A stretch of 64,000 nucleotides of DNA from NCBI GenBank assembly GCA_964016885.1, contig OZ024755.1, forward strand, positions 13,330,001 to 13,394,000. The letters are read 5' to 3'. The translations under genes and the position numbers were made by a program. Under the pieces are notes generated by a model. It saw nothing but the letters and a program-made list of their open reading frames with translations. It ran no database searches and was not told where the DNA came from. Positions 15,508 to 61,833 of the stretch are shown here, one piece after another (within the stretch, counting starts at the first letter, position 1; each line of letters begins with the position of its first letter). The DNA is from Eledone cirrhosa. Taxonomy: Eukaryota.

Positions 15508-16599
15508 TTAAAGGGTTCCTATCTAAATTAAAACCTTCCAGCATAATTTGATATAGGAACATTTTGTTATGTTACAGATAATATCTTAATGAAATAATGG
15601 TTTCTGATTTAGGCACAAGGCCAACAATTTTTGGGAAGGGGAAAGTCAATTAAATCAATCCCAGTGTGTTACTGGTACTTTATTTATCAACCCCTGTAAG
15701 GATGAAAGGCAAAGCTAACCTCAGCAGGATTAATAATGAAATAATAAACAATTTTAGTGAACCCTAAAATTTTCCATTAATTAGAAATATGGTAATAAAA
15801 GGTTGAATACTAACCTCTCTTTTACTACAACTACATACAGGCCCTTCAGTCTTTCATTCATATCTTTAATATTCCACCTTTCCTCATACTCCATTTTTCA
15901 GCATCAGCACTGTCATTTTACAGAGTGTACTGGGAGCACTTTATCATGGTAACAGCAGTACTACTTTACAAAGTGTACTGGGTGCACTTTATTGCAGCAC
16001 CAGCAGTACCACTTTACAAAGTGTACTGGGTCCACTTCATTTATATATTGTACTGGTTAATGAAAATCTAAGCCAAGCAGCTGTCCATATCTCACTTCCA
16101 GATATAATCGTAAACTATTGTCCAGATGTTGTTAATGTCCTTGAGAAAGAACCAAAGAGATATGTACTCTATAGTTTCTATTTTTCACTGTAAAAATCTG
16201 ACATCACACATGTATAGGTGAAAATCAATACCATCATAAACATACAACATAAAACTTTTCACCACCGTTTAATGTCTATCTTCCACGCTAGCATGGGTTT
16301 AGATATGTATATATACTCTCCTTAGTATGCTTGCTTTCATATTTCTCCTTGCTTCCCTTTTCTCATTGTATTTGTATATAAACAAGTACATAGATATAAG
16401 GAGAAAGGGAGACCAAGGGGAAAAGGAGAGCAAAGAGAGTAATGAGAAAAGGAGAGCAAAGAGAGTAATGGGAAAAGGAGAGTAATGGGAAAAGGAGAGC
16501 AATGAGAAAAGGAGAGCAATGAGAAAAGGAGAGCAATGAGAAAGGGAGAGCAATGGGAAAAAGGAGAGCAAGGAGAAAAGGAGAGGTTAAGGCAAATAT

Positions 16600-44990: not shown

Positions 44991-45586
44991 ATAATTACTG
45001 GGAATATTTATTGTGACTCCAACACTACTGTCTTTCAGGGTGGACATTGTTTCTACAGTAGGGTGGTCTTCCTGTTGCTAATCACCCATACTGAGTGTAC
45101 CTCAATATTCACAGCCTCATTTGCATTGTAGAGGTTTCCAAAACCTACCCAAATTTCCATATTCCATATAGTCACAATGCTTCAAGCAGACTATTATTGG
45201 CACTATCAGTATAGCGTCAGATGCTATACTTTGAAACATAGTTATGGCCCTTTACGTTCTGAATTCAAATCTCGCCCAGGTTAACTTTGCCTTTCATTCT
45301 TACGGGGTCAATAAAATAAAGTACTAGTAATGCACTGGGAAAATTGCTGGCCTTGTGCCAAAAGTAGAAACAATTATTATTGTCATCCCCCCCCCCCCCC
45401 GCCCCACCCTCTCCCCCTCCTTTTCCTTCTCACTTCTGTTGATTTTTAGGTTGTTATCACTACTGCCATTATTGGTGATATTATTATTGTTTTTATTGCT
45501 GTCATTATTGATGTTGTTGTTCTTATCATTATTATTGTTATTGGTTTTATTGGTGTCATTATTGATGTTGTTGTTGTTATTTGAAG

Positions 45587-45651
45587 AACTGATGAACAGA
45601 AGAAAGAAAGATATGCAAAGACAATATCTGAAATGAAGAAGTTTATTCCAA
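45587..45651 (+). CDS. SNX14: SNX14 coding exon (RTDEQKKERYAKTISEMKKFIP)
   Basis: ttgaAG / GTaaga; phase 2 to 1; matches recalled [22 protein letters not shown]; follows a 24.8-kb intron. Confidence 0.88.
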
Positions 45652-45937
45652 GTAAGAATATATCAATTTTTCTGGAAAATGACTTTGTATGTGGTGTGTG
45701 TTCATGTATGTGTGTGTGTATATCTGTCTGTTAGTGTTAATGTATTGGTTAGTTTGTGTATGTATATATGCACGTGTCTGTAGTATGTATGTGTATGTTT
45801 GTGTATAGATGTTTGCTTGTGTGTATGTATATATATGTATGCATGTATGTGCCTATATATGTTTGACTATGTATATGTGCACATGTGTCTATGTGTATTT
45901 TTGTATGTAGATATGTGTTTGCTTGTGTCCATGTGTG

Positions 45938-45968
<31 letters not shown>

Positions 45969-47169
45969 TTAAATATAGAAATGGCTTTTACAGGACTAGA
46001 ACTGTTTCAATCGAAGGAAATCATCAGGGCTTTCCTTCGAATGAAACAGTTCTAGTCCTGTAGAAGCCATTTCTATATTAAAAATGTATACTCTGTTATA
46101 TATTGAGTGCCTTACTTACTCTGGTTACCCCTGATGGAACCCAGGATACACATATCTATCTCTCTTGAGATATGTTTGTGTATGTACCTATATATGTCTG
46201 TGTATTTATATATGTACATGTGTCTGTATGTGTATCGATGAGTGTTTGCTTGTGTTTCAATGTATATATAGATATGTATGTAGTGTATGTGCTTATATAT
46301 GTGTATGTGTGTTTGCTTATGTATGTAAGTGCACTTGTGTCTATATGTGCATAGATGTGTGTTTACTTCTGTCTGTGTATATGTGTGTGTGTGCATGTGT
46401 TTATATAGATATGTATGTGTGTATATATTTCTGTCTGAATGTATATGTAATTTATGTTTAATATTCTCACCATAGCATTAACAAACAGTTCAGTTATATT
46501 TTATCAAGAGAAAATATTCTCTCAGAAATTGTTGTGAGCAAATAGTAACAAATAATTGCATTCACAATGGTATGTCATTTATAATGTTATGTCATTTATA
46601 ATTTCTCTTCTAATATACATTTTGTAATGATTATTATTTTTATTATTATTGATGGCTTGCATAGTAAATATGATAATTGTTGGATCTTATACTGCTTACC
46701 GAGTCTCAACAAAGAACATTAGACAGATACTACATTCCTACAGTGGCCAACAGGGCAGTCTTTTGTAGGAGCGTAATTTGGGATTTGATACACTCTCAGT
46801 TTTAGTGGTGATAAAAGCCCCCTAAATTTAAGGTATATTTACTTAAGATACCCTTTCAGTTTTAGGGGTGTCAAGCCCCCTAAATTATCTTGATGTTAGG
46901 TGGTATTGACCACATTTGTCCAATTTTAATTTTTGTTATTGTTTTTTTTAAATTTCTTCTAATGCATGTTGTGGTCTTCTGGGACAGTAACATCAATGAT
47001 CTGGCAATTATTATTATTAGGGCACTGGATTGGCAGTATAGATAGACCATCGGAAATATGCTTTGCAGTATATAGTTACGGCCCTTTCAGTTCTGAGTTC
47101 AAATTCTGCCGAGGTTAGCTTTCATCCTTACGAAGTCGATAAAATAAAGTTATTAGTTGTTAGGAGCAG

Positions 47170-47850
47170 AAGCATTTTATTGTTCTGAAGAGGAAGTCTA
47201 GTTTTTGAGATTCAATTTTTACTATGTTGAGTATGTGTATTCACCAAGAGAGGGCCTCAGAAATAGTGGGACCTAGCATATGTAGACACTTTGAGGTTTC
47301 TAGTTACATACTGTTATTTAGTAAGGGATGGATGTGTGTTGTTTTCTTGATATGTGTAGTGATTGTGTCTTTTGAAGGGACCAAGATTGGCATGAGTCCA
47401 TTTAAGGGATACTTCAGAAGTCTCTGTTTATCGAATCAGTGAAGACTTTGTGAGGAGGTGTTGAGGTTGCATGTGGATGATGCTTGGGTGTGGAAGGTTA
47501 TGGAGGAATGGAGGATGTTATTATCTGTGTAGAATTGAGCATTTGTGGGGGTGATGGCAAGCAGGTTGTTGATGTATAGGATGAAGAGCATGAGGAGCAC
47601 AACACCGAACCTTGGGTCATACCATGGTTGATAGAATGTAGGCCAGGGAGAGCTGCATCAATATATGCCACACTGTTGTAATATGACAAGAAGTCTCCTA
47701 TAGAAGAGACATGAGGAGCCTATAGTTTGGTAGTTATGGCAGGAGATTTGTGTGCCAGATACTGGTAAAAGCTTTGCTGATGTCAAGTACAACAGCCTCA
47801 TTTTCACCAAATTTCTTTGGGGTAAGAACCTACTGGTAAGTGACATGGAG
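47170..47850 (-). mobile_element. heavily decayed non-LTR reverse transcriptase fragment
   Basis: minus-strand HSINHGMTQGSVLCS resembles the RT motif INxGVPQGSVLxP; frameshifted. Confidence 0.5.
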
Positions 47851-50190
47851 TACGTTTTCAGTAATTTTATGTTGAAGTTGTCTTACATTTTCTAATATGT
47901 TCTGTATTATGCATAAATGTTTGTTATTTCAATCATTAGTTCTATTTTGGCAATTTTTATGTGCAATTATTGGCTTGCATAAAAGGCAGACTGCATGCGA
48001 GCTGAGAATAACAACTGAGCATTAGAAATATTAGCCAATGTATGTGCAGGGTGGAGAGCAGGTGAGCTGGTATGGACATGTTGTGTAAATGGACAACAGC
48101 TGTTAAGTGAAAACATGCTGTGAACTGACAGTGGGAAGTAGCAGGTGAAAGAAGAAGACTTGGGAAAGAAATGGTGAGATTTAATCTGAGGATATTAGCT
48201 CTGGCAGACAGGATAATGTAGTATGAATGAGAGTAGAGATATGTTGTACAGCAGACATTTTCAGCTCATTGCAACAACAACAACAAACAAAAGCAACTAA
48301 AAAACTAATGTTAAAATGATGATAATTATATGTACATTTTTCTATTTGAAACATAATTTAATAGGAACAAACATGTGTTTATATGTCACATTCTCAGACA
48401 ACAGACATCTAATTCTTTGTTTCTGTTTAATGATTAAAGTCTTAAGAAAATGAGTTATCATCATCAATTTATGCTTGTTTTTCCATACTTGCATGGGTTG
48501 GATGGGTCTTCTCAAGCAGTATATCTTATTACTTGATGTTGTCATCTTGGTGAAGTTCCACCTTCATCACTACTTCTTTCTGTGTTGTTCTTGGTCTTCT
48601 TTGGTACTCTTCTTCTACAGCTGTAACATGGTAGTGCTGGTACCACAATAAAATGAACCTGGTACACTTTGTAAAGTGATAGTGCTGGTACCATGATAAA
48701 ATGCAGCCAGTACACTCTGTAAAATTGTAATGCTTGTGCCATGATAAAATAAACCCAGTACATTCTGAAAAGTAGTATTTCTGGAAATAAACTCAATATA
48801 TTTTGTAAAGTGGTATTGCTGGTACCACAATAAAACGAACCTGGTACACTTTGAAAGGTGGTACTGTTAGTGGCATGGTAAAATGCAGCCAGTGCACCCT
48901 GTAGAATGATTGGTATTAGAAGCCCAAGCTATAGAAGAAACGATGCCAAAATATGAAATGCATGAGAAGACGTAGTCTCTTCAACTCATCTAGTCAAGGA
49001 TAACAACAACTTGTCCAAACCATACCAGCATTGAAAACAGATGTTGTTGTTGTTGTTGTTGATGATGATGATTGTCTGTCTCTGGATCTTCTTATTCTCC
49101 ATTACCTGGCAATAACATCTGTTAATTCCACTTTGAAAGCTTTCTTTTAAAAACATGCAGGCAGAGCCACATATGTTTCCAAAACAAACAATTTCTATTT
49201 TGTCTACCAAAATATGAAGAATACTATGCAAGTGAGAGGTGTCAACTATTGCTGACATTATTCAGATTTTTACATCTTCTCTTATGAATTTGTATCCCAT
49301 TGAATACAACGATGTGTTATTGTTAGTCAAGACACTTAACTCTGCTTGGCCAAAGGCTATATTCCTAATTAAAAAATAATTATACAATTTTCTCGTTTCC
49401 TATCAGATAATGCATTATTTAGTCAGTGAAATAAAAGTTTACACTTAACTGTTACATCATAATAAAAGCATGCATACACATAAAAAGACACATATATATG
49501 TATATAAATGCACATACATGCATACGCATAAACACACACACATATATATAAATATACATTCATATTAACACTAATATATATATATATAAATGCACATACA
49601 TGATGTGCACATATACCCACACATACAAGTAAATTCACAAACACACATGCACACACATCTATCAATACACATTCCTACATACACATACATGTATACACAT
49701 ATAATACAGATACTTATACATTTATACACATACATACATGCATTCATATACACATACACAAACATATACAGCACACAAACATGCACACATGCTGACATAT
49801 GCACACACATAAACACACTGAACAGATTGCCATTTCATTATTAAAATTGTATATAGAGGAAGTGCGTGTGTGTGTTTATCATCATCATCGTCACTGTTTG
49901 ATATCTATTTTCCATGCTTGCATGAGTTAAACAGGCTGTCACATTGTGAGGCTTGCTAGATCAGGACAGGTGACCAAGTTTTGCTCATATGGATCTGTTT
50001 CGGGCTTGGTTTTTATAGCTGGATGCCATTGCCAGCCACATTACAATGTACACTGGGAGTTTTTTCATGGCACCACAATTACCACTTTATAGGGTGGACT
50101 GGGTGCTTTTCATTATAGCACTAAAATGGCCAAACAGTGGGGACAGTGTTCTCTTTTGTTGTACCAGCACAATGTCCCTAGAGAGTGGAA

Positions 50191-50502
50191 ATCATCATCA
50201 TCATCATTTTAAGTCTGCTTTTCCCTGCTTGCAAGGGTGGGACAGGAACTGATTCTGGGGTGATTTCTACAGCTGGATGCCCTTCCTAACACCAACCTCA
50301 TTTACAGTGAGTGCTGGGTGTTTTTTTTCCGTGGCGCCTATACGTCCACTTTACAGTGTGGGCTGGGTGCTTTTTTTTGCCTTGACACCTCCACGACCAC
50401 TTTGCAGTTGAATGATAGGGACCCCAGTCTTATTTCATTTCTACAGCTGAGTAAACTGGAGCAATGTGAAATAAAGTGTCTTGCTCAAGGAAACAACACA
50501 TC
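50191..50502 (-). mobile_element. SINE copy lacking the tRNA head
   Basis: same body and tail as 34103-34432. Confidence 0.8.
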
Positions 50503-50697
50503 ATATCAAATATATATATATTTATGTGCATATATATCATCATTGATTAACATCTATCTTCCAGGCTAGCATAGGTTAGACAAGTTTGTCCTATTTAGAG
50601 GCAAGTTGGGTCGCCAACCACATTGACAGTGTGTGCTGGGTGCTTTTTGTCATGACACCTACACAATCACTTTACAGTGTGGGCTGGATGTTTTGTG

Positions 50698-50738
<41 letters not shown>

Positions 50739-51000
50739 CATATGCCATATATGTAATATACATACACATATCATACATATACATACACACTTCATATATA
50801 TACACACATAAATATATCATCAACCTTGTCCATCATTCATGGGTAGGACGGATTAACCCTTGTTTAGCCACCAGGGGCAGATTTTGGCTTGGTTTCTACA
50901 GCTGGGTGCCATACCTACCGCCAACCACATTTACAGTGTGTGCTGGGTACTTTTTGTTGTGTCACCTACACCACCACATTACAGTGTGGACTGGGCACTA

Positions 51001-51355
51001 TCATCATTTCATCATCATTTTTCATCATTTCATTTTACGTCCACTTTTCCCTGCTAGCAAGGGTGGGACGGGAACTGATTCTGGCTTGAATTCTACAGCT
51101 GGATGCCCTTCCTAACACCAACCTCATTTACAGTGAGTGCTGGGTGCTTTTTTGCCGTGGCACCTCCACGACCACTTTGCAGTGGAATGATAGGGACCCC
51201 AGTCCCTATCATCTCATTTCTACAGCTGAGTAAACTGGAGCAATGTGAAATCAAGTGTCTTGCTGAAGGAAACAACACATCACCCGGTCTGAGAATTGAA
51301 CTCACAACCTTTCGATTGCAAGGCCAATGCTCTAACCACTAAGCCATGTGCCTCC
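51001..51355 (-). mobile_element. tRNA/CORE-like/RTE-tail SINE copy
   Basis: nearly identical to 34103-34432. Confidence 0.87.
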
Positions 51356-51396
<41 letters not shown>

Positions 51397-52414
51397 TATA
51401 TAGGTGGGTTTCCAATGTATAAAACCTCTCTAGTGCTGGTACCATGATAAAATGAACCTAGTATGCCCTGTAAAGTGGCTGGTGTTGGTGCTATATGGCA
51501 TTACACTGTCAACATACTCCCTCCTATTGTCACTTATGACATAATACTTATCCTCCTCCTTACTCCTCTCCCCCCATAAAGTAGAGAGAGTTTTTAGTGG
51601 AGCCAATTACCGACAACTTCTCGAGTGCTGGTGTCAACATAAAATGCATCCTGTACACTTTGTAAAGTATTTGCTGGTAGGAAAAGCATCCCGCTGTAGG
51701 AAACTTGCCAAACGAAGTGTAGAGAAAGTGTAGAGAAAAGCTGTCAAGGACATGACAATCTCTTTAGTGCTGGTGCCATGATAAAATAGATGGCACACTC
51801 TATAGAGTGCAGGGATATATGTATATAAGCGAGAAGAGGTCCCGACTTATTTGAGAGATCAGATTAAGAGGCTCTGATTAAGTTCTGATTTCTGTGACAA
51901 CTCGACCAAACTTTGCTAGCAGAGTAAACAGATGTCTAATGATGATAATAAATAAATAGAAGAAAAAAACAAGAAATGTTATTAATTATACTAGTATTTT
52001 TTTCTATAAATATCAACCTATATTTAGTAATGTAAGTTGCTTTTGTTTCATTGATTAATACCAAATAGTTTGGCTTTTTTTAAATATCTCAGACAAGATT
52101 TTTTTCTATCTTACCATTTAAATCTATTTATCTATCTATCTATCTATCCACCCACCATCTCTCTCTCTTGCTATCTCTATATAAATATATATGTGTGTAT
52201 GTGTGGTATTGTGGAAAAATGGACGTTAAATGGCGATGATGATATGTGTGTGAAGAACCCATATATATATATATATATATATATATGGGTTTTTCTCAAG
52301 GTTATTTACATATGTAACTTGGCTGTATTTTATTTCTGGTGCTGGATATCTAAATAAATATTGGCAGCAGGTAGATATGGATTTTCATTATTTACTTCTG
52401 TCTATCTTTTCTGT

Positions 52415-52465
<51 letters not shown>

Positions 52466-52532
52466 GTAGCCATTTCTATATATATATAGTGACGAACATA
52501 AGTCAATTGCATGAACTCATAATCCTTTATTT

Positions 52533-52588
52533 ACTGCTATATATATTTCGATGATAGCCATTGAATGGCTATGACCTCATCAGGCAGT
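52533..52588 (-). ncRNA. type I hammerhead ribozyme motif (intact core)
   Basis: minus strand reads ACUGC-CUGAUGA-GGU C AUAGCCAU uca AUGGCUAU C AUC-GAAA-U auau AUA-GCAGU: 5-bp stem I, long stem II, minimal palindromic stem III, AUA cleavage triplet. Confidence 0.85.
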
Positions 52589-52777
52589 TAGTCAGTTCTT
52601 AGATGTGCCATCTCTGTGTTTATAGTGTTGATGGTATCAGAGCCTTGGGACATATATATATGGTATCAGAGCCTTGGGATATATATATATGTGGTTACAC
52701 AACAGTTAGTTCACCATACCGAGAACAATTGGACATGGACATGGTTATAACAACAATAGACATGGTTATAACCATGT

Positions 52778-52827
52778 CCATTACGAGCTGAAGATCCGCT
52801 AAGGTGAAACAATTGTTCTCAGTATGG
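52778..52827 (+). ncRNA. minimal type I hammerhead motif
   Basis: CCAU uac GAG-CUGAAGA-u CC gcuaa GG u-GAAA-C aauu GUU-CUC agu AUGG; palindromic stem III AACAAUUGUU; stem I has an internal loop. Confidence 0.65.
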
Positions 52828-53121
52828 TGAACTAACTGTTGTGTAACCACTTCTACCTAACTCGTCCCATGGACTGAGTGCTCTACCACTACGGATATTA
52901 CCTCCCAATGTTCTACCACTATATATATATATATATATTCAATTGGATTTGACTCTATTTATAAGCTCCTATTAATATGTCAATGGTGGAAGATTTTATC
53001 GTCACGTTAAGAGATGGTAAAAGATGGAAGGGTAGCAGAAGATTGATGGTATTAATGAGGAATCAGTAATATTGGATACAAGCAAATGCTACGAGAGATC
53101 AGAGGCTACATACATCCACCA

Positions 53122-53538
53122 GTGTCCTGTATTCTAAGCTACACATAGCACCAGACTTTACCAAAATGACCTGTATTCCAAGCTATGCTTAGCACCAGGC
53201 TTTGCCAAAATATCTTGTATTCCAAGCTACACATAACACCAGACTTTATCAACATGTTCCATTTTCCAAGCTACACATAGGACTAGGCTTTACCAAAAAT
53301 GTCCTGTAGTCCAAGCTATACATAGCATGAGACTTTACCAAAATGTCCTGCATTTCCAAGCTACATGTACTACCCCTCTTGTATCAGACTTTACTAAAAT
53401 GTTCTGTAGTCCAAGCTACACATAGCACCAGACTTTACCAAAATGTTCTGTAGTCTAAGCTACACATACCACCCCTCTTGTACCAAAATGTCCTGTAGTA
53501 CGAGATAAACTTAGCACCAGACTTTACCAAAATGTCCC
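53122..53538. repeat. about 44-bp degenerate minisatellite, about 9 copies
   Basis: unit tgtcctgtattccaagctacacatagcaccagactttaccaaaa. Confidence 0.85.
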
Positions 53539-54285
53539 AACTGGTTACCAATCAATTACATATTTTGATGTTATTTTTATTGATCTACAGACAACTGATA
53601 GTTTCATCATGATATTAAATATATATTTGTGTGTGTATGCCTATCTATTTATGTGTGTCTATGTATGTATACTTGTAAATTTGTATGTGTGTCTATGTAT
53701 GTGTGTATGTGTATATCTGTCTATGTATGCGTATGTCTGTCTGTATGTATGTGTATGTCTATGTATGTGTGTGTTTGTGTATGTATGTATATGTATGTCT
53801 GTGTATGCATGTGTGTGTATGTGTCTGTATGTCTGTGTCTATGTGTGTGCATGCTTTACTGTTTGATGTTGTAGTTACCATATCACAGCTCTTATTTTCT
53901 GCTCTAGTTGATTGAAATTCATGTTAATTTCATACACCTTTGTCTCCTCCTCCCCCTCACCTGAAGTTCTGTGATATAATCATTTATATTGAACAGATTC
54001 CAATAAAGGTAGCAGACATATGTCTCATTATTTGAAGAATTAGAGTAGGAGGAGACCCGTGAAAACAACCAGCTTATCCACACCCCACCCCACACTGACC
54101 CACATCACATAGCTCCACACAGCCCTGACAGATCTTGAAATAATGCATGTTGGTCATCCATCACTTGTGATGATGAGTGCTCCAGTTATTTGAACAATGG
54201 AACAGCCTGATTGTGAAATTAACATGCAAGTGGCTGAGCATTCTACAGATACATGCACCCTTAACATAGTCTGGATTTTACATAC

Positions 54286-54615
54286 ATCATCATCATCATC
54301 ATTTTACGTCCGCTTTTCCCTGCTTGCAAGGGTTGGACGGGTCCTATTCAGCACAGCATCTCTCCACTTGTCACGGTCCTTCGTCATCTCCTCGGTGAGT
54401 TTCAGTGATCTGAGGTCTGCTCTCACCACCTCCGCCCATGTTTTACGTGGTCTACCTCTGCTGCATCTTCCTTCTACTGGGATTTCTTGGCACTTCTTTA
54501 CCCAGCGGTCATCCTCCATGCACATCACATGTCCATACCATCTCAGCCTTCTCTCCTGCACACCACAACTTATCCCTCTTATACCCAGTTTCTTTCTCAA
54601 CTTGTCTATGGAAGG
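54286..54615 (-). mobile_element. RTE LINE 3' fragment
   Basis: [21 protein letters not shown]...GRPRKTWAEVVRADL; (GAT)n tail. Confidence 0.9.
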
Positions 54616-54652
54616 AATATATTAGGTTAATGCTTGTACTAGCAGGAAGAGG

Positions 54653-54691
54653 GTCTTAACGTTTCGGATGCTAGTCCTTCATCAGTAGAAA
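54653..54691 (-). ncRNA. Penelope-type minimal hammerhead motif
   Basis: minus strand ucua-CUGAUGA-a GGA cuagca UCC-GAAA-CGUU aaga; palindromic AACGUU stem III can only pair as a dimer; stem I weak. Confidence 0.6.
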
Positions 54692-55612
54692 GAATGCGGA
54701 ATAGGATAGATTGAAAGGACAGGTGGGTTGGGATTGGAAAAAATATCTTTAGATAAAAATAATATATAACATTTGTGTGTGTGTCTTCATATTCAACATC
54801 ACAAGCAATGATATTTGTTTATGTTCTATATAAACAAAGATCTCACTGCCCACCAGTTATGTGTGTGAGCATTAATACCCTACTTAGAAACATGTGAGGG
54901 TCATCTCCATTAATGACAACCAACCATAGAACACTACCTCAAAAAGAATCTCCTCCAACCCATGCCAGTATGGAAAAATAAACGTAAAACTGATTATTAC
55001 GATGATGATGATTGTGTGGTGTTTGATTAGGTAGGAGTTTTGAAGAGTTTCTGCTATATCTGAAGTTTTTTGATTTGTCATTAATAAACCAGAATTTGTC
55101 TCAGAGATTTTCAATTCTTTCTACGCTTGCTGTATATCATTATTCCTTATTGTCCTGCATCCTTTCCTGCTGGCCATTGGCTCTCAATATAATTTGTTGA
55201 ATAACTCTTACTTTTCACCCACACAAATCTGATTATGATAAATTAGTTATAAGTAATTGAAGTGTCGATTAATAAGATATAAGCCTTTGGGAGAGAGGAA
55301 TTAAATTCTTCCACGTTCAATAAATTCAATATCTTCTGAAATTCAATAAAGAACTCATTTCTGTTACTAAAAATCAAGTTTTCTCTGGGGAAATTTCGTA
55401 AAGTACCTGGATAAAACTGGAAATCGAACTAATGGGAAAAAATATAAAGCAAAACTAACAAACAAAAACAACAAAAAAGCAACCCAAATAGTTCCACATT
55501 TTGTTTTTAAAAGATTCTTCTTAAATTCCATTTATCTTCATTAGTTAAAATCTTCATGAACTGGATAAAAATCATTTTCTCTCAGATTGTCAGTGTGTTT
55601 AAAAAGATTAAG

Positions 55613-55643
<31 letters not shown>

Positions 55644-56634
55644 TAAATGTATGTATATATATAATGTATGTGTATGTATATATTCATATATATAAGGGAA
55701 ATGGATGTTAAATGTTGAAGACAATGTAATATACTCTTCCTGTTACTGGAAAGTAGATACAATTCTCTCATCATTTACAATCAAATATACGCGAGTCATT
55801 GCTTGTGTGTATATGTGTGCACATGTGAAAGTAATCCCCACAGTAAATAGCTATAATAAATTCGATAAGTTTATAAATACCATGGCTCTCAATATATTTA
55901 TTTTCATTAATTACATAAAAGACAAATGTCTGATACACTGTTGTTCAACTGTCCATTCCTCTCTCTATATCGTTACAACTAATATTTCATTTAACTCATT
56001 AATTTCCTGCAAATAGAAGCTAATTCCTTAATTCCTTAAAAACAATAAATATTCTGTCACACAAAATGAAATAGTTTAATGAAATATGAACATCTGTGAA
56101 CTTAAATATTTTTTGGTTTCAAAATATTCGAAATTTCATGAAGTTTGGAAAAAGTAAGGTGATTTATTTTGATATTCTTGTAAAAAATTTTTTTTCATAT
56201 ATTATTTAGTCAGAGAAGACAGGCCAGTATCTATAGGTGTATTCAGGGCTTCCAAAATTGGTGGGTGTGAGGGAGGAAGGACAGTGTCCTCAAACTAGGT
56301 TGTGGCAGTGATAAACTGGGTAATTACTACCCAAGCAGGTCACAGCAGGTTTTGAACTAGGATTGAAAATTGCCAGCACTGTGGGAGCTCAGCAGTCAGC
56401 ACAAACTATTTATAATATATAAACTCTACTTTCTCAAGTATTGTGTACTTAGCTGAACATGGTCTTACTGGTCTAGACTAGTAACTTCCAATCTCTCTCT
56501 CTGTATGTATATATATATATATAAACAACTGACCATAGCAGAACGTAAAAATAACCGTTAAAAACTTTACTTTTCTCTAATATTATTTCTCCAAGAAAGA
56601 CTTTCTTTTTTATGTTTTCTTTGTGTTGCTTCTA

Positions 56635-56693
56635 ACTATCTGAAGAGGTCATAGCTGTTGAATTGTGGCTATCACCAAAATATATATAATGGT
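56635..56693 (+). ncRNA. degenerate hammerhead, same family as 52533-52588 (GAAA mutated to AAAA)
   Basis: ACUAU-CUGAAGA-GGU C AUAGC...GCUAU C ACC-AAAA-UAUAUAUA-AUGGU; stems preserved by compensatory changes. Confidence 0.7.
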
Positions 56694-56807
56694 AATGAAA
56701 GAAGTAAATTATGAAATGTTGTTTATATATATATATATATATCTTGCAGCTTCTTTTTATAAAGATGATAGCCTGATGATCAAAATATATTTTCTATTTG
56801 CTTTTAG

Positions 56808-56899
56808 ATATCCTAGTGTTTGCAATTGGCGAGCAGAACCACCATGAAGGAACCAAATTAATTCTTGACTTATTGCAACAACCAAAACTCAATAAACAG
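56808..56899 (+). CDS. SNX14: SNX14 coding exon (NILVFAIGEQNHHEGTKLILDLLQQPKLNKQ)
   Basis: ttttAG / GTaaca; contains the PXC signature LQQPxLNKQ. Confidence 0.95.
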
Positions 56900-57980
56900 G
56901 TAACATGTAATGTTCATGTTGTGTAAAACTTCTGGGATAATTCTTGTCTATATTGCTAATGAAAGACACTGAATACAAATTTTGAAAAACTTTTGAAAAT
57001 TATTAAGAATTTGGATGGATTTAGTAATATATTCAATTTTCTCATCATTAAGCTGGTATTTTTGGAACATAACTTAACAGTTCTAACATAAAATATGATG
57101 AAAGGTTTTAGATAAATGTAAGCATTTAAAAATAAACAGCTAAGTATTGTAAAACCAGGGGAGGTTTCAGGTGGTTTGGTAGCAAAAGGTACATGTTTGT
57201 ATATATATATATATGTGTGTGTGTGTGTGGTAATATGGTAATATTAGTACAGATCCACAGGCAGGGTTGGGCTATTTAGAAGTTGACTTTCAAATTAAAT
57301 TCATCGGGATATTCTTGTCTTTATTGTTGCATAGACTTTTTTCATTGTTTAGTCAGAGAGGATAGGTCAGTGCACACAGTTGTTTTCAGGGCCTCAGTTT
57401 GTTTGGTTAGAGGGAGAGAGGAAAGTGTCCTCAAACTCTGGAAATATGGCCCAAATACTTGCAACAGAGTAGACTCTACTACAGATAGATAGTGCTTTCT
57501 ACTACAGGTAAATGGTACCTTTAGATAGGATGGAAAACATGGAGATTAAAATGATGAGAATATACAAAATTTAACCAAAACTGTAAAATGTGTAAGTAAC
57601 TACATTGGCGTGTGTAAATGTACATCTTTTTTTAATGTGTTCATCTTATAAAGCAATTAGTTGTATATTTTTCTGAAGACTTAGATTGAATCGAACAAGA
57701 TTTGAAACCTGAGTCATATCTTTCAGTTGATTTAGGTGTTTGGCAATATACATAAAAACATATGTTGGTGTGTATATATAGTAATAATAAATGTGAAGAC
57801 TAAAATCCGAAGAGGGCTCGATAAAGATTATATATATATTTATAAAATATATATAAATATAAAAACCCGTAGAGCAAATATTTATTATAAGAACAGATTA
57901 AAGTTTAAGCAAAGAATTGCAGCTTTCACCCTTAACTGTTAAGGGTGTAAGCAGTGATTCTTTGCTTAAACTTATAATAA

Positions 57981-61428: not shown

Positions 61429-61734
61429 AATACATGTAGGTATATATCTATGTGTATATATAATATATGGATGTACATATCTATGTATATATGTATGTAT
61501 GTATCTATGTATGTATATATCTACGTATATATACAAATAAGTATGTATGTGTATTTATATATCTATGTATATATGTATGTATGTGTATTTATATATGTAT
61601 GTATGTGTATTTATATATGTATCTATGTATATCTATATATCTATGTGTCTATGTATATCTATGTATATCTATGTATATATCTATATATCTTTGTATGTAT
61701 GTATAACAATCTTTTTTCCCCTTTTTTCTTGCAG

Positions 61735-61833
61735 TTAACTTATGTCTTTCTTGACATCATCATTGTAGAGCTGTTTCCTGAACTGAAAGAAAATTACAGC
61801 CCAGATGTTCGACTTAACAATTCTAATAGTTAA
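61735..61833 (+). CDS. SNX14: SNX14 last coding exon ([32 protein letters not shown])
   Basis: strong polypyrimidine tract and ttgcAG; LTYVxLDIxxxELFPEL signature; TAA at 61831-61833. Confidence 0.96.

Follow-up and report, generated by a model that had tools for sequence, protein, structure and literature searches.

Two hammerhead ribozyme motifs lie about 4 kb apart, on opposite strands, in one intron of the sorting nexin gene SNX14 of Eledone cirrhosa. They fall within a window of 64,000 nucleotides that was analysed as a whole (assembly GCA_964016885.1, contig OZ024755.1, positions 13,330,001 to 13,394,000). The question raised by this locus is whether the two motifs form a pair of ribozymes acting on the host gene, with stems kept by compensatory changes, or have another origin. 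The reading that we favour, at a probability of about 0.88, is that both are the hammerhead-bearing 3′ ends of separately inserted, 5′-truncated copies of a Penelope-like element (PLE) of the Hydra clade. Their fold would be kept by selection in the transposing lineages, and would likely cut RNA after AUA only as a dimer or together with element protein, the two copies in the window being likely passive remnants.

Two remnants in one intron

Copy A (52533..52588, minus strand) is antisense to SNX14 and presents the type I minimal layout with an intact core, reading 5′ to 3′ ACUGC, CUGAUGA, GGU-C-AUAGC, a loop, GCUAU-C-AUC, GAAA, UAUAUAUA and GCAGU. Its helix I comprises 5 bp, and its helix II 3 bp, a C-C mismatch and 7-8 bp. 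Helix III is the palindromic AUAUAUAU, UAUAUAUA standing where a stable helix III would be, and the cut is predicted 3′ of position 52538 (between 52538 and 52537). Copy B (56635..56693, plus strand), in the sense orientation to SNX14, is a decayed minimal hammerhead that reads ACUAU, CUGAAGA, GGU-C-AUAGC, a loop, GCUAU-C-ACC, AAAA, UAUAUAUA and AUGGU. It has A at position 7, and another A replaces G12 at 56677, which is the G of a CpG in its relatives. The type I minimal core (C3 U4 G5 A6 N7 G8 A9, G12 A13 A14, A15.1-U16.1, H17) is complete in copy A and in all eight subfamily majorities described below, and incomplete in copy B at G12. Positions, layout, stems and C-C mismatch are as the initial annotation had described them. 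The two motifs are the sole copies within the window and have 54/70 bases in common (E 5e-11).

Each motif belongs to a longer remnant with TA runs on both sides. The remnant of copy A (52489..52655, minus strand) is a 5′-truncated 3′ end of subfamily A, i.e. a fragment of the pseudo-long terminal repeat (pLTR), with 83-97% identity by BLAST to the full-length locus L130 and to L065. At its 5′ truncation junction, within TA repeats, lies a short duplicate of the element's own sequence (52661..52679, minus strand), which is underlain by a repeat of 29-bp period at 52631-52691. The remnant of copy B (56511..56721, plus strand) is likewise a 5′-truncated 3′ end but belongs to subfamily C within that element group, and is 80-89% identical to L066/L071, L072, L095 and L096. 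As compared with the majority of 23 relatives, copy A differs at only 2/170 positions and is therefore called young; none of these differences falls inside the hammerhead, which equals the subfamily A majority, and copy A is intact because it is young. Copy B differs from the majority of 14 relatives at 12/179 positions, 4 of them at the TA junction, and is older and more decayed. The opposite orientation of the two, which the initial annotation had pointed out, carries no meaning, as they are two separate insertions 4 kb apart. Their origin as one inverted insertion was considered and rejected on their distance, their 77% identity and their different subfamilies. Both orientations occur together in 9/30 loci, representing 6 distinct insertions, and true inverted partners are 110-430 bp apart, those compared being 94-97% identical.

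The differences in stem I had been taken as compensatory, which proves correct for one base pair and not for the other. The core-closing C-G to U-A exchange is inherited and, with U or A at N7, makes up the only inherited subfamily differences between the two copies. The G-C to A-U exchange exists in copy B only: helix I is ACUGU/ACGGU in subfamily C and ACUAU/AUGGU in copy B, where position 56638 has gone from G to A, 56690 from C to T (CpG) and 56677, the G12 site, from G to A (CpG). Within its context of 19 nt, the ACUAU arm is found once in the genome, in copy B, and A-U at that helix I pair only in copy B among 62 distinct aligned rows. Because relatives show the two changes separately (G to A alone in L177 and L091; C to T alone in L078, L178, L081 and L083), this exchange is best explained by two unrelated mutations through decay, that of C to T at a CpG, and is likely due to chance. 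CpG decay matching 56690 is present in 4/14 of the 3′-anchored subfamily C copies, and helix I of copy B is predicted to be open (mean pair probability 0.05). The loss of G12 had been ascribed to CpG decay, and relatives indeed have G in a CpG at 56677; in contigs of one sample, perhaps the assembly's own source, paralogues carry G at both 56638 and 56677. A comparison of only two copies of a repeat can mistake CpG decay for compensation.

A high-copy Penelope-like carrier

Exact-pattern searches covered the 3.0 Gb of the genome, with reversed patterns as controls and the first 30 loci in contig order examined for each pattern. The 22-nt 3′ half of the motif returns 13,551 matches, the 16-nt 5′ half 4,291, a subfamily B/C pattern 765 and an N7=A pattern 165, against 0, 0, 1 and 0 matches of the respective controls. 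Since thousands of matches are opposed to none for the reversed halves, the motif is far beyond chance. The 3′ end of the copies is fixed and followed by TA repeats, and it lies exactly 50 nt past the predicted cut in 37/53 subfamily A copies; the 5′ ends vary, often falling at TA runs. A fixed 3′ end with variable 5′ ends is the pattern of 5′-truncated retrotransposon insertions. At 23/30 junction loci (L182-L211), a second fixed 3′ end is found 85-89 nt into the element body, again followed by TA repeats; the end of the tail is also recorded at 85-86 nt in 23/30. This element tail of 85-89 nt is about twice the usual 30-40 bp described for PLEs.

Long copies possess an upstream frame ending in an endonuclease-like domain, and a protein search with the endonuclease alone leads to a same-strand hammerhead 0.9-1.3 kb downstream in 24/30 loci (23/29 without the seed locus). 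Locus L130 displays, in order, (TA)n, a 250-bp pLTR, an open frame of 847 residues, a 3′ untranslated region (UTR) or 3′ region, a second pLTR and (TA)n, its pLTRs being direct repeats that form a partial tandem as in PLEs. Its upstream pLTR (L130 3046-3294) has a deletion through the hammerhead 5′ core and helix II arm. By motif, the open reading frame (ORF) comprises a reverse transcriptase (RT; YRDD at 317) and a C-terminal endonuclease (VY..YIG at 728). At least one copy in each of the subfamilies A, C and D has an endonuclease upstream, and the endonuclease frame upstream of the subfamily C copy L096 is 50% identical to that of subfamily A.

The Hydra clade is diagnosed by DKT, RW(K/R), a CxCx5C linker, the lack of CCHH, CxxC and CxH around E and N, and insertion at (TA)n (Craig et al. 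2021, PMC8557442). In the E. cirrhosa element, ADKT (DKG changed to DKT) is present in the L130 and L131 frames, and RMRWR, in which R replaces K of the RWK-type N-terminal motif, in a broken frame adjoining the L130 ORF. The CxCx5C linker occurs in 6/7 frames examined, the exception being L137, whose frame is truncated. Between the GIY and YIG positions there is no cysteine pair (7/7 frames), CxxC precedes the catalytic E (7/7), CxH follows N as read by eye, and TA runs come after the fixed 3′ end. Because these motifs match the published diagnosis, the carrier is assigned to the Hydra-clade Penelope-like retrotransposons, by motifs rather than by a tree. A Neptune-type identity was rejected on the CxCx5C linker and the missing CCHH, the contrast being provided by a Neptune-type frame in L132. 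The latter (L132 7178-9178, plus strand) is a separate PLE frame located about 1.1 kb after a Hydra-type ORF, with DKG, a Cx5CxxC linker, a cysteine pair inside GIY-YIG and a Pfam GIY-YIG match (E 3.5e-7). Another Hydra-like family (RLRW, DKT) is found near subfamily A copies at L062 6549-8042 (plus strand, opposite to the subfamily A copy) and near L063 9344-9763 (plus strand). Frames in the upstream region of L064 resemble, by motif, a Helitron replicase-helicase. A homolog search with the element ORF returns 256 proteins, nearly all unnamed, and a PDB sequence search with the element ORFs no relevant match.

A Hydra-clade element with a hammerhead has been published from Octopus bimaculoides under the name of Hydra-1_Obim (Craig et al. 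2021, PMC8557442). Hydra-1_Obim and its clade likewise have a single RT-endonuclease ORF, (TA)n insertion and a hammerhead near the 3′ end, and the RT motifs of Hydra-1_Obim align by eye with the frame of the present element. However, because its hammerhead sequence is unrelated, the E. cirrhosa element is, as judged from sequence, another family. In L130 about 4.1 kb separate the pLTR end and the 3′ end, with a 3′ region of 1.3 kb, as against under 3 kb in the published system. The pLTRs are in tandem here, whereas Hydra-1_Obim is listed without pLTR. The 26 Hydra rows of File S2 all exhibit a GUH triplet and a helix III opening with A-C, whereas helix III is AU only here, and both the AUA cleavage triplet (AUU in one subfamily) and the kept C-C mismatch of helix II are absent from those rows.

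Other systems share part of these features. Another known group of hammerheads similarly has a helix I of 4-5 bp, a long helix II, a G10.1-C11.1 pair and a palindromic helix III region, and also occurs mostly as single copies from truncated elements, in close opposite-strand pairs and in sequence families with covariation. It differs by an extra base between positions 9 and 10.1, in place of which the present motif has the internal C-C mismatch, and by the nature of helix III, which is here a TA microsatellite like the element's own target. The Poseidon element PAc of Anolis carolinensis (Frangieh et al. 2024, PMC11167929) likewise uses two reverse-transcription start points, has copies with and without tail, and shows hammerhead read-through in inserted copies. 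PAc belongs to a different clade, its tail is 30-40 nt long instead of about 85-89 nt, and its hammerhead lies across the ORF start, whereas about 190 nt separate the present one from the likely ORF start downstream. Metazoan non-LTR retrozymes (PMC7229834; bioRxiv 10.64898/2026.07.22.740005) also are PLE-related type I hammerheads in dispersed animal repeats, but as non-coding tandem monomers and not at the ends of protein-coding elements. Literature searches brought up no description of this family, and it may already be catalogued in repeat databases (Repbase, Dfam). Hydra hammerheads, including that of an octopus, are already published; new are the all-AU helix III, the kept C-C mismatch and the 85-nt tail. 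With its high copy number, eight subfamilies, near-complete ORFs and a young intact hammerhead, this Hydra family is usable to test what PLE hammerheads do.

Conservation of the fold and reading through the cut site

In total, 125 copies were collected, and eight subfamily majorities were formed from them, copies A and B and two degenerate rows being excluded. All 28 comparisons of these majorities agree at every core base (11/11), H17 being A, or U in subfamily B2a, and 102/104 scored helix positions are paired. Between subfamilies A and C, the stems agree at 86%, the upstream flank at 44% and the downstream flank at 70%. Three pairs have undergone inherited swaps: the core-closing pair of helix I (C-G/U-A), its outer pair (A-U/G-C) and pair 6 of helix II (U-A/C-G). 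As most copies were found by the 5′ half, a search by the 3′ half was also performed. Its 30 copies include 25 with exact CUGANGA and 29 that keep the C-C mismatch, and helix II pair 6 is C-G in 17/30, U-A in 12/30 and mismatched in 1/30. According to these copies, the U-G state of subfamily D in the majorities is a search-pattern artefact. Among the 3′-anchored matches listed (L139-L167), the most frequent type is subfamily D, distinguished by CUGAAGA, a short loop and C-G as pair 6 of helix II. The initial annotation's inference that structure was conserved during amplification thus holds at the family level, where an identical core and inherited base-pair swaps stand within diverged flanks. 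L141 diverges more than these subfamilies and, with a helix II unlike theirs, represents one more family. In L083 and at G000:C6:10523815-10523920, the 5′ half of the subfamily C hammerhead is repeated in short tandem units of about 45 bp.

Helix III would count only 2 bp within one molecule, its closing costing a predicted 2-3.5 kcal/mol. Its 8-mer is self-complementary, and two copies could form a double hammerhead. The TA tract has eight bases in all eight subfamily majorities, as opposed to inserted copies, in which it is expanded inside an otherwise whole hammerhead in 18/30 matches (L212-L241); in the other 12, the copy starts at a TA run or lacks an internal segment as far as such a run. 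This opposition between majorities and inserted copies points to a constraint on TA tract length in active lineages. Of the 27 pLTRs joined to element body or tail, the start coincides with the cut site in 3 and lies upstream in 24; in 21 cases the entire hammerhead is contained, among them all 6 that have a long body. Uncut RNA is the usual template, and most insertions read through an intact hammerhead, so cutting is likely slow or late. According to the genomic record, uncut RNA gave rise to most of the inserted cDNA, while selection continued to act on the catalytic core. The idea, prompted by L131, that cleavage sets the 5′ end of inserted copies was rejected given the 3/27 pLTRs and TA microhomology, which yields the same junction. 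Dimer and protein dependence have been reported for other PLE hammerheads (PMC4209133; PMC11167929). The predicted energies of helix III, within one molecule and between two, suggest similarly that the predicted self-cleavage 3′ of H17 would be weak and occur in a dimer or with protein assistance.

From PLE biology (PMC4209133, PMC6765202 and PMC11167929), a tandem copy would be transcribed through the pLTR. The element endonuclease would then nick (TA)n, and reverse transcription would start about 50 nt past the cut site, or 135 nt past it with the tail, the two start points being visible as the common end and as the second end 85-89 nt further. Reverse transcription would often stop early, leaving short hammerhead-containing ends such as copies A and B.

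Several results weigh against the reading of the two motifs as ends of Hydra-clade copies with a selected, cutting fold. Covariation among homologues, which had been proposed as a check, is only partly apparent. The alignment comprises 63/125 copies (A 11/53, B1 12/13, B2 13/19, C 12/16, D 12/20, E 3/4), in whose 62 distinct rows 93.6% of cells are paired (slid controls, 18-59%). In these rows 47 cells changed on both sides versus 20.5 +/- 3.2 after shuffling (0/500), a count that the relatedness of copies inflates. The pair-level count (5 versus 4.0 shuffled, 156/500) and the pair types (325/500) are not above shuffles, and because these measures are the least sensitive to relatedness, independent swap events are considered few (three pairs). 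RNAalifold recovers helix I and not helix II, and most copies were collected with patterns containing part of the core. Rfam hammerhead models give no match in the window at the gathering score, nor in 52300-56900 at E up to 10, and a Pfam search of the element ORFs returns no RT or GIY-YIG domain. Folding energy alone would be weak support for the motifs (z of -1.89 for copy A and -0.19 for copy B, with 8/200 and 75/200 shuffles folding as well), and for copy A the most stable predicted structure, which lies 1.1 kcal/mol lower than the hammerhead, engages part of the core strand in base pairs. A dimer would be held by an AU duplex of only about -3.2 kcal/mol, and only 3/27 pLTRs begin at the cut site. 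Finally, inserted copies show no sign of constraint, with 3/229 core versus 42/2,572 flanking non-CpG sites diverged (p = 1.0) in the 23/29 protein-anchored subfamily A loci with a 3′ end, a comparison of low power given its 3 core changes.

The scarcity of pLTRs starting at the cut, together with the weak dimer helix, could mean that the fold persists because the element protein binds it or starts reverse transcription on it, cutting being minor in transposition. The anole study concurs, as catalytic mutants had no effect on in vitro insertion and no reads ended at the cut (PMC11167929). This explanation is unlikely, though the most serious of those considered: the invariance of all 11 bases of the catalytic core, an N7 that varies and an H17 restricted to allowed bases across eight subfamilies form the pattern of selection on catalysis, and the copies visible in the genome are those that were read through, so that other transcripts may be cut. 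A different proposal, that copies A and B are monomers of a non-coding retrozyme, made of short hammerhead units in tandem and mobilised by a Penelope-like element, would account for fragments in the window that are short, non-coding and endowed with a type I hammerhead. It would also fit the 5/30 N7=A loci and 2/30 subfamily B loci, few as they are, with endonuclease sequence within 1.5 kb. Yet the copies end at one fixed point on the 3′ side, their 5′ ends differ in position and run into the 3′ UTR and ORF, and inspection of the retrieved loci showed no array of 150-400-nt monomers. The upstream endonuclease in copies of subfamilies A, C and D, on which, and not on subfamily B, the ORF link rests, also speaks against it. 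The ORF link largely refutes this proposal for subfamilies A and C, and we hold it to be very improbable for the window copies.

Slightly less probable still is that the host has selected copies A and B as a pair, acting on SNX14 pre-mRNA or on a transcript antisense to it, and that the stem changes of copy B are truly compensatory. Both do reside in one SNX14 intron, copy B in sense and 115 nt from the acceptor, and copy A is fully intact; but copy B is devoid of G12, its helix I is predicted to be open and its two stem changes occur separately in relatives, while copy A is antisense and simply young. Moreover, 13,551 matches per 3 Gb make two copies in 64 kb only mildly unusual, and both are set in TA runs, into which the element inserts. 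The interpretation as separately inserted Hydra-clade remnants is retained. One extension of it, which we regard as improbable, concerns cutting in trans. Since every subfamily shares the same self-complementary 8-mer, thousands of dispersed copies, including core-dead intronic ones such as copy B, could pair across molecules into double hammerheads, and active element RNA would cut other copies or host pre-mRNAs at (AU)4-H plus a matching five-base arm. If true, dispersed repeat fragments could affect host pre-mRNA in repeat-rich cephalopod genomes.

The SNX14 intron and neighbouring repeats

The SNX14 setting given to the sense copy by the initial annotation is borne out. A coding exon of the C-terminal region (56808..56899, plus strand) is 81% identical to the Octopus vulgaris sorting nexin-14-like protein, and its acceptor AG at 56806-56807 lies 115 nt past the copy B motif. 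Copies A and B share the intron at about 45654-56807, with further exons at 45585-45653 upstream and 61732-61815 downstream. Because the intact copy is antisense and the sense copy is devoid of G12, no effect on SNX14 is expected. Over 1862-61815 (plus strand), the window contains 13 matches to SNX14 exons, which cover the C-terminal 340 residues of the protein; two of the introns measure about 25 kb and 11 kb. A genome search with Pfam Nexin_C reports only the exons near 18.8 kb of the window, below the cut-off. Just past the SNX14 exon, 56990-57094 belongs to another high-copy repeat, contig depth there being similar to that of the hammerhead region.

Between the two hammerheads, a 170-bp palindromic element resembling a miniature inverted-repeat transposable element (52686-52855), also present in L066, has 46-nt arms that are 93% complementary; an Rfam MIR6217 match on it is far below threshold. 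It is followed by nine copies of a 44-bp tandem repeat (53123-53539). Lastly, 48-bp repeats of another dispersed family are found at window positions 15899, 34434, 37830 and 48622.

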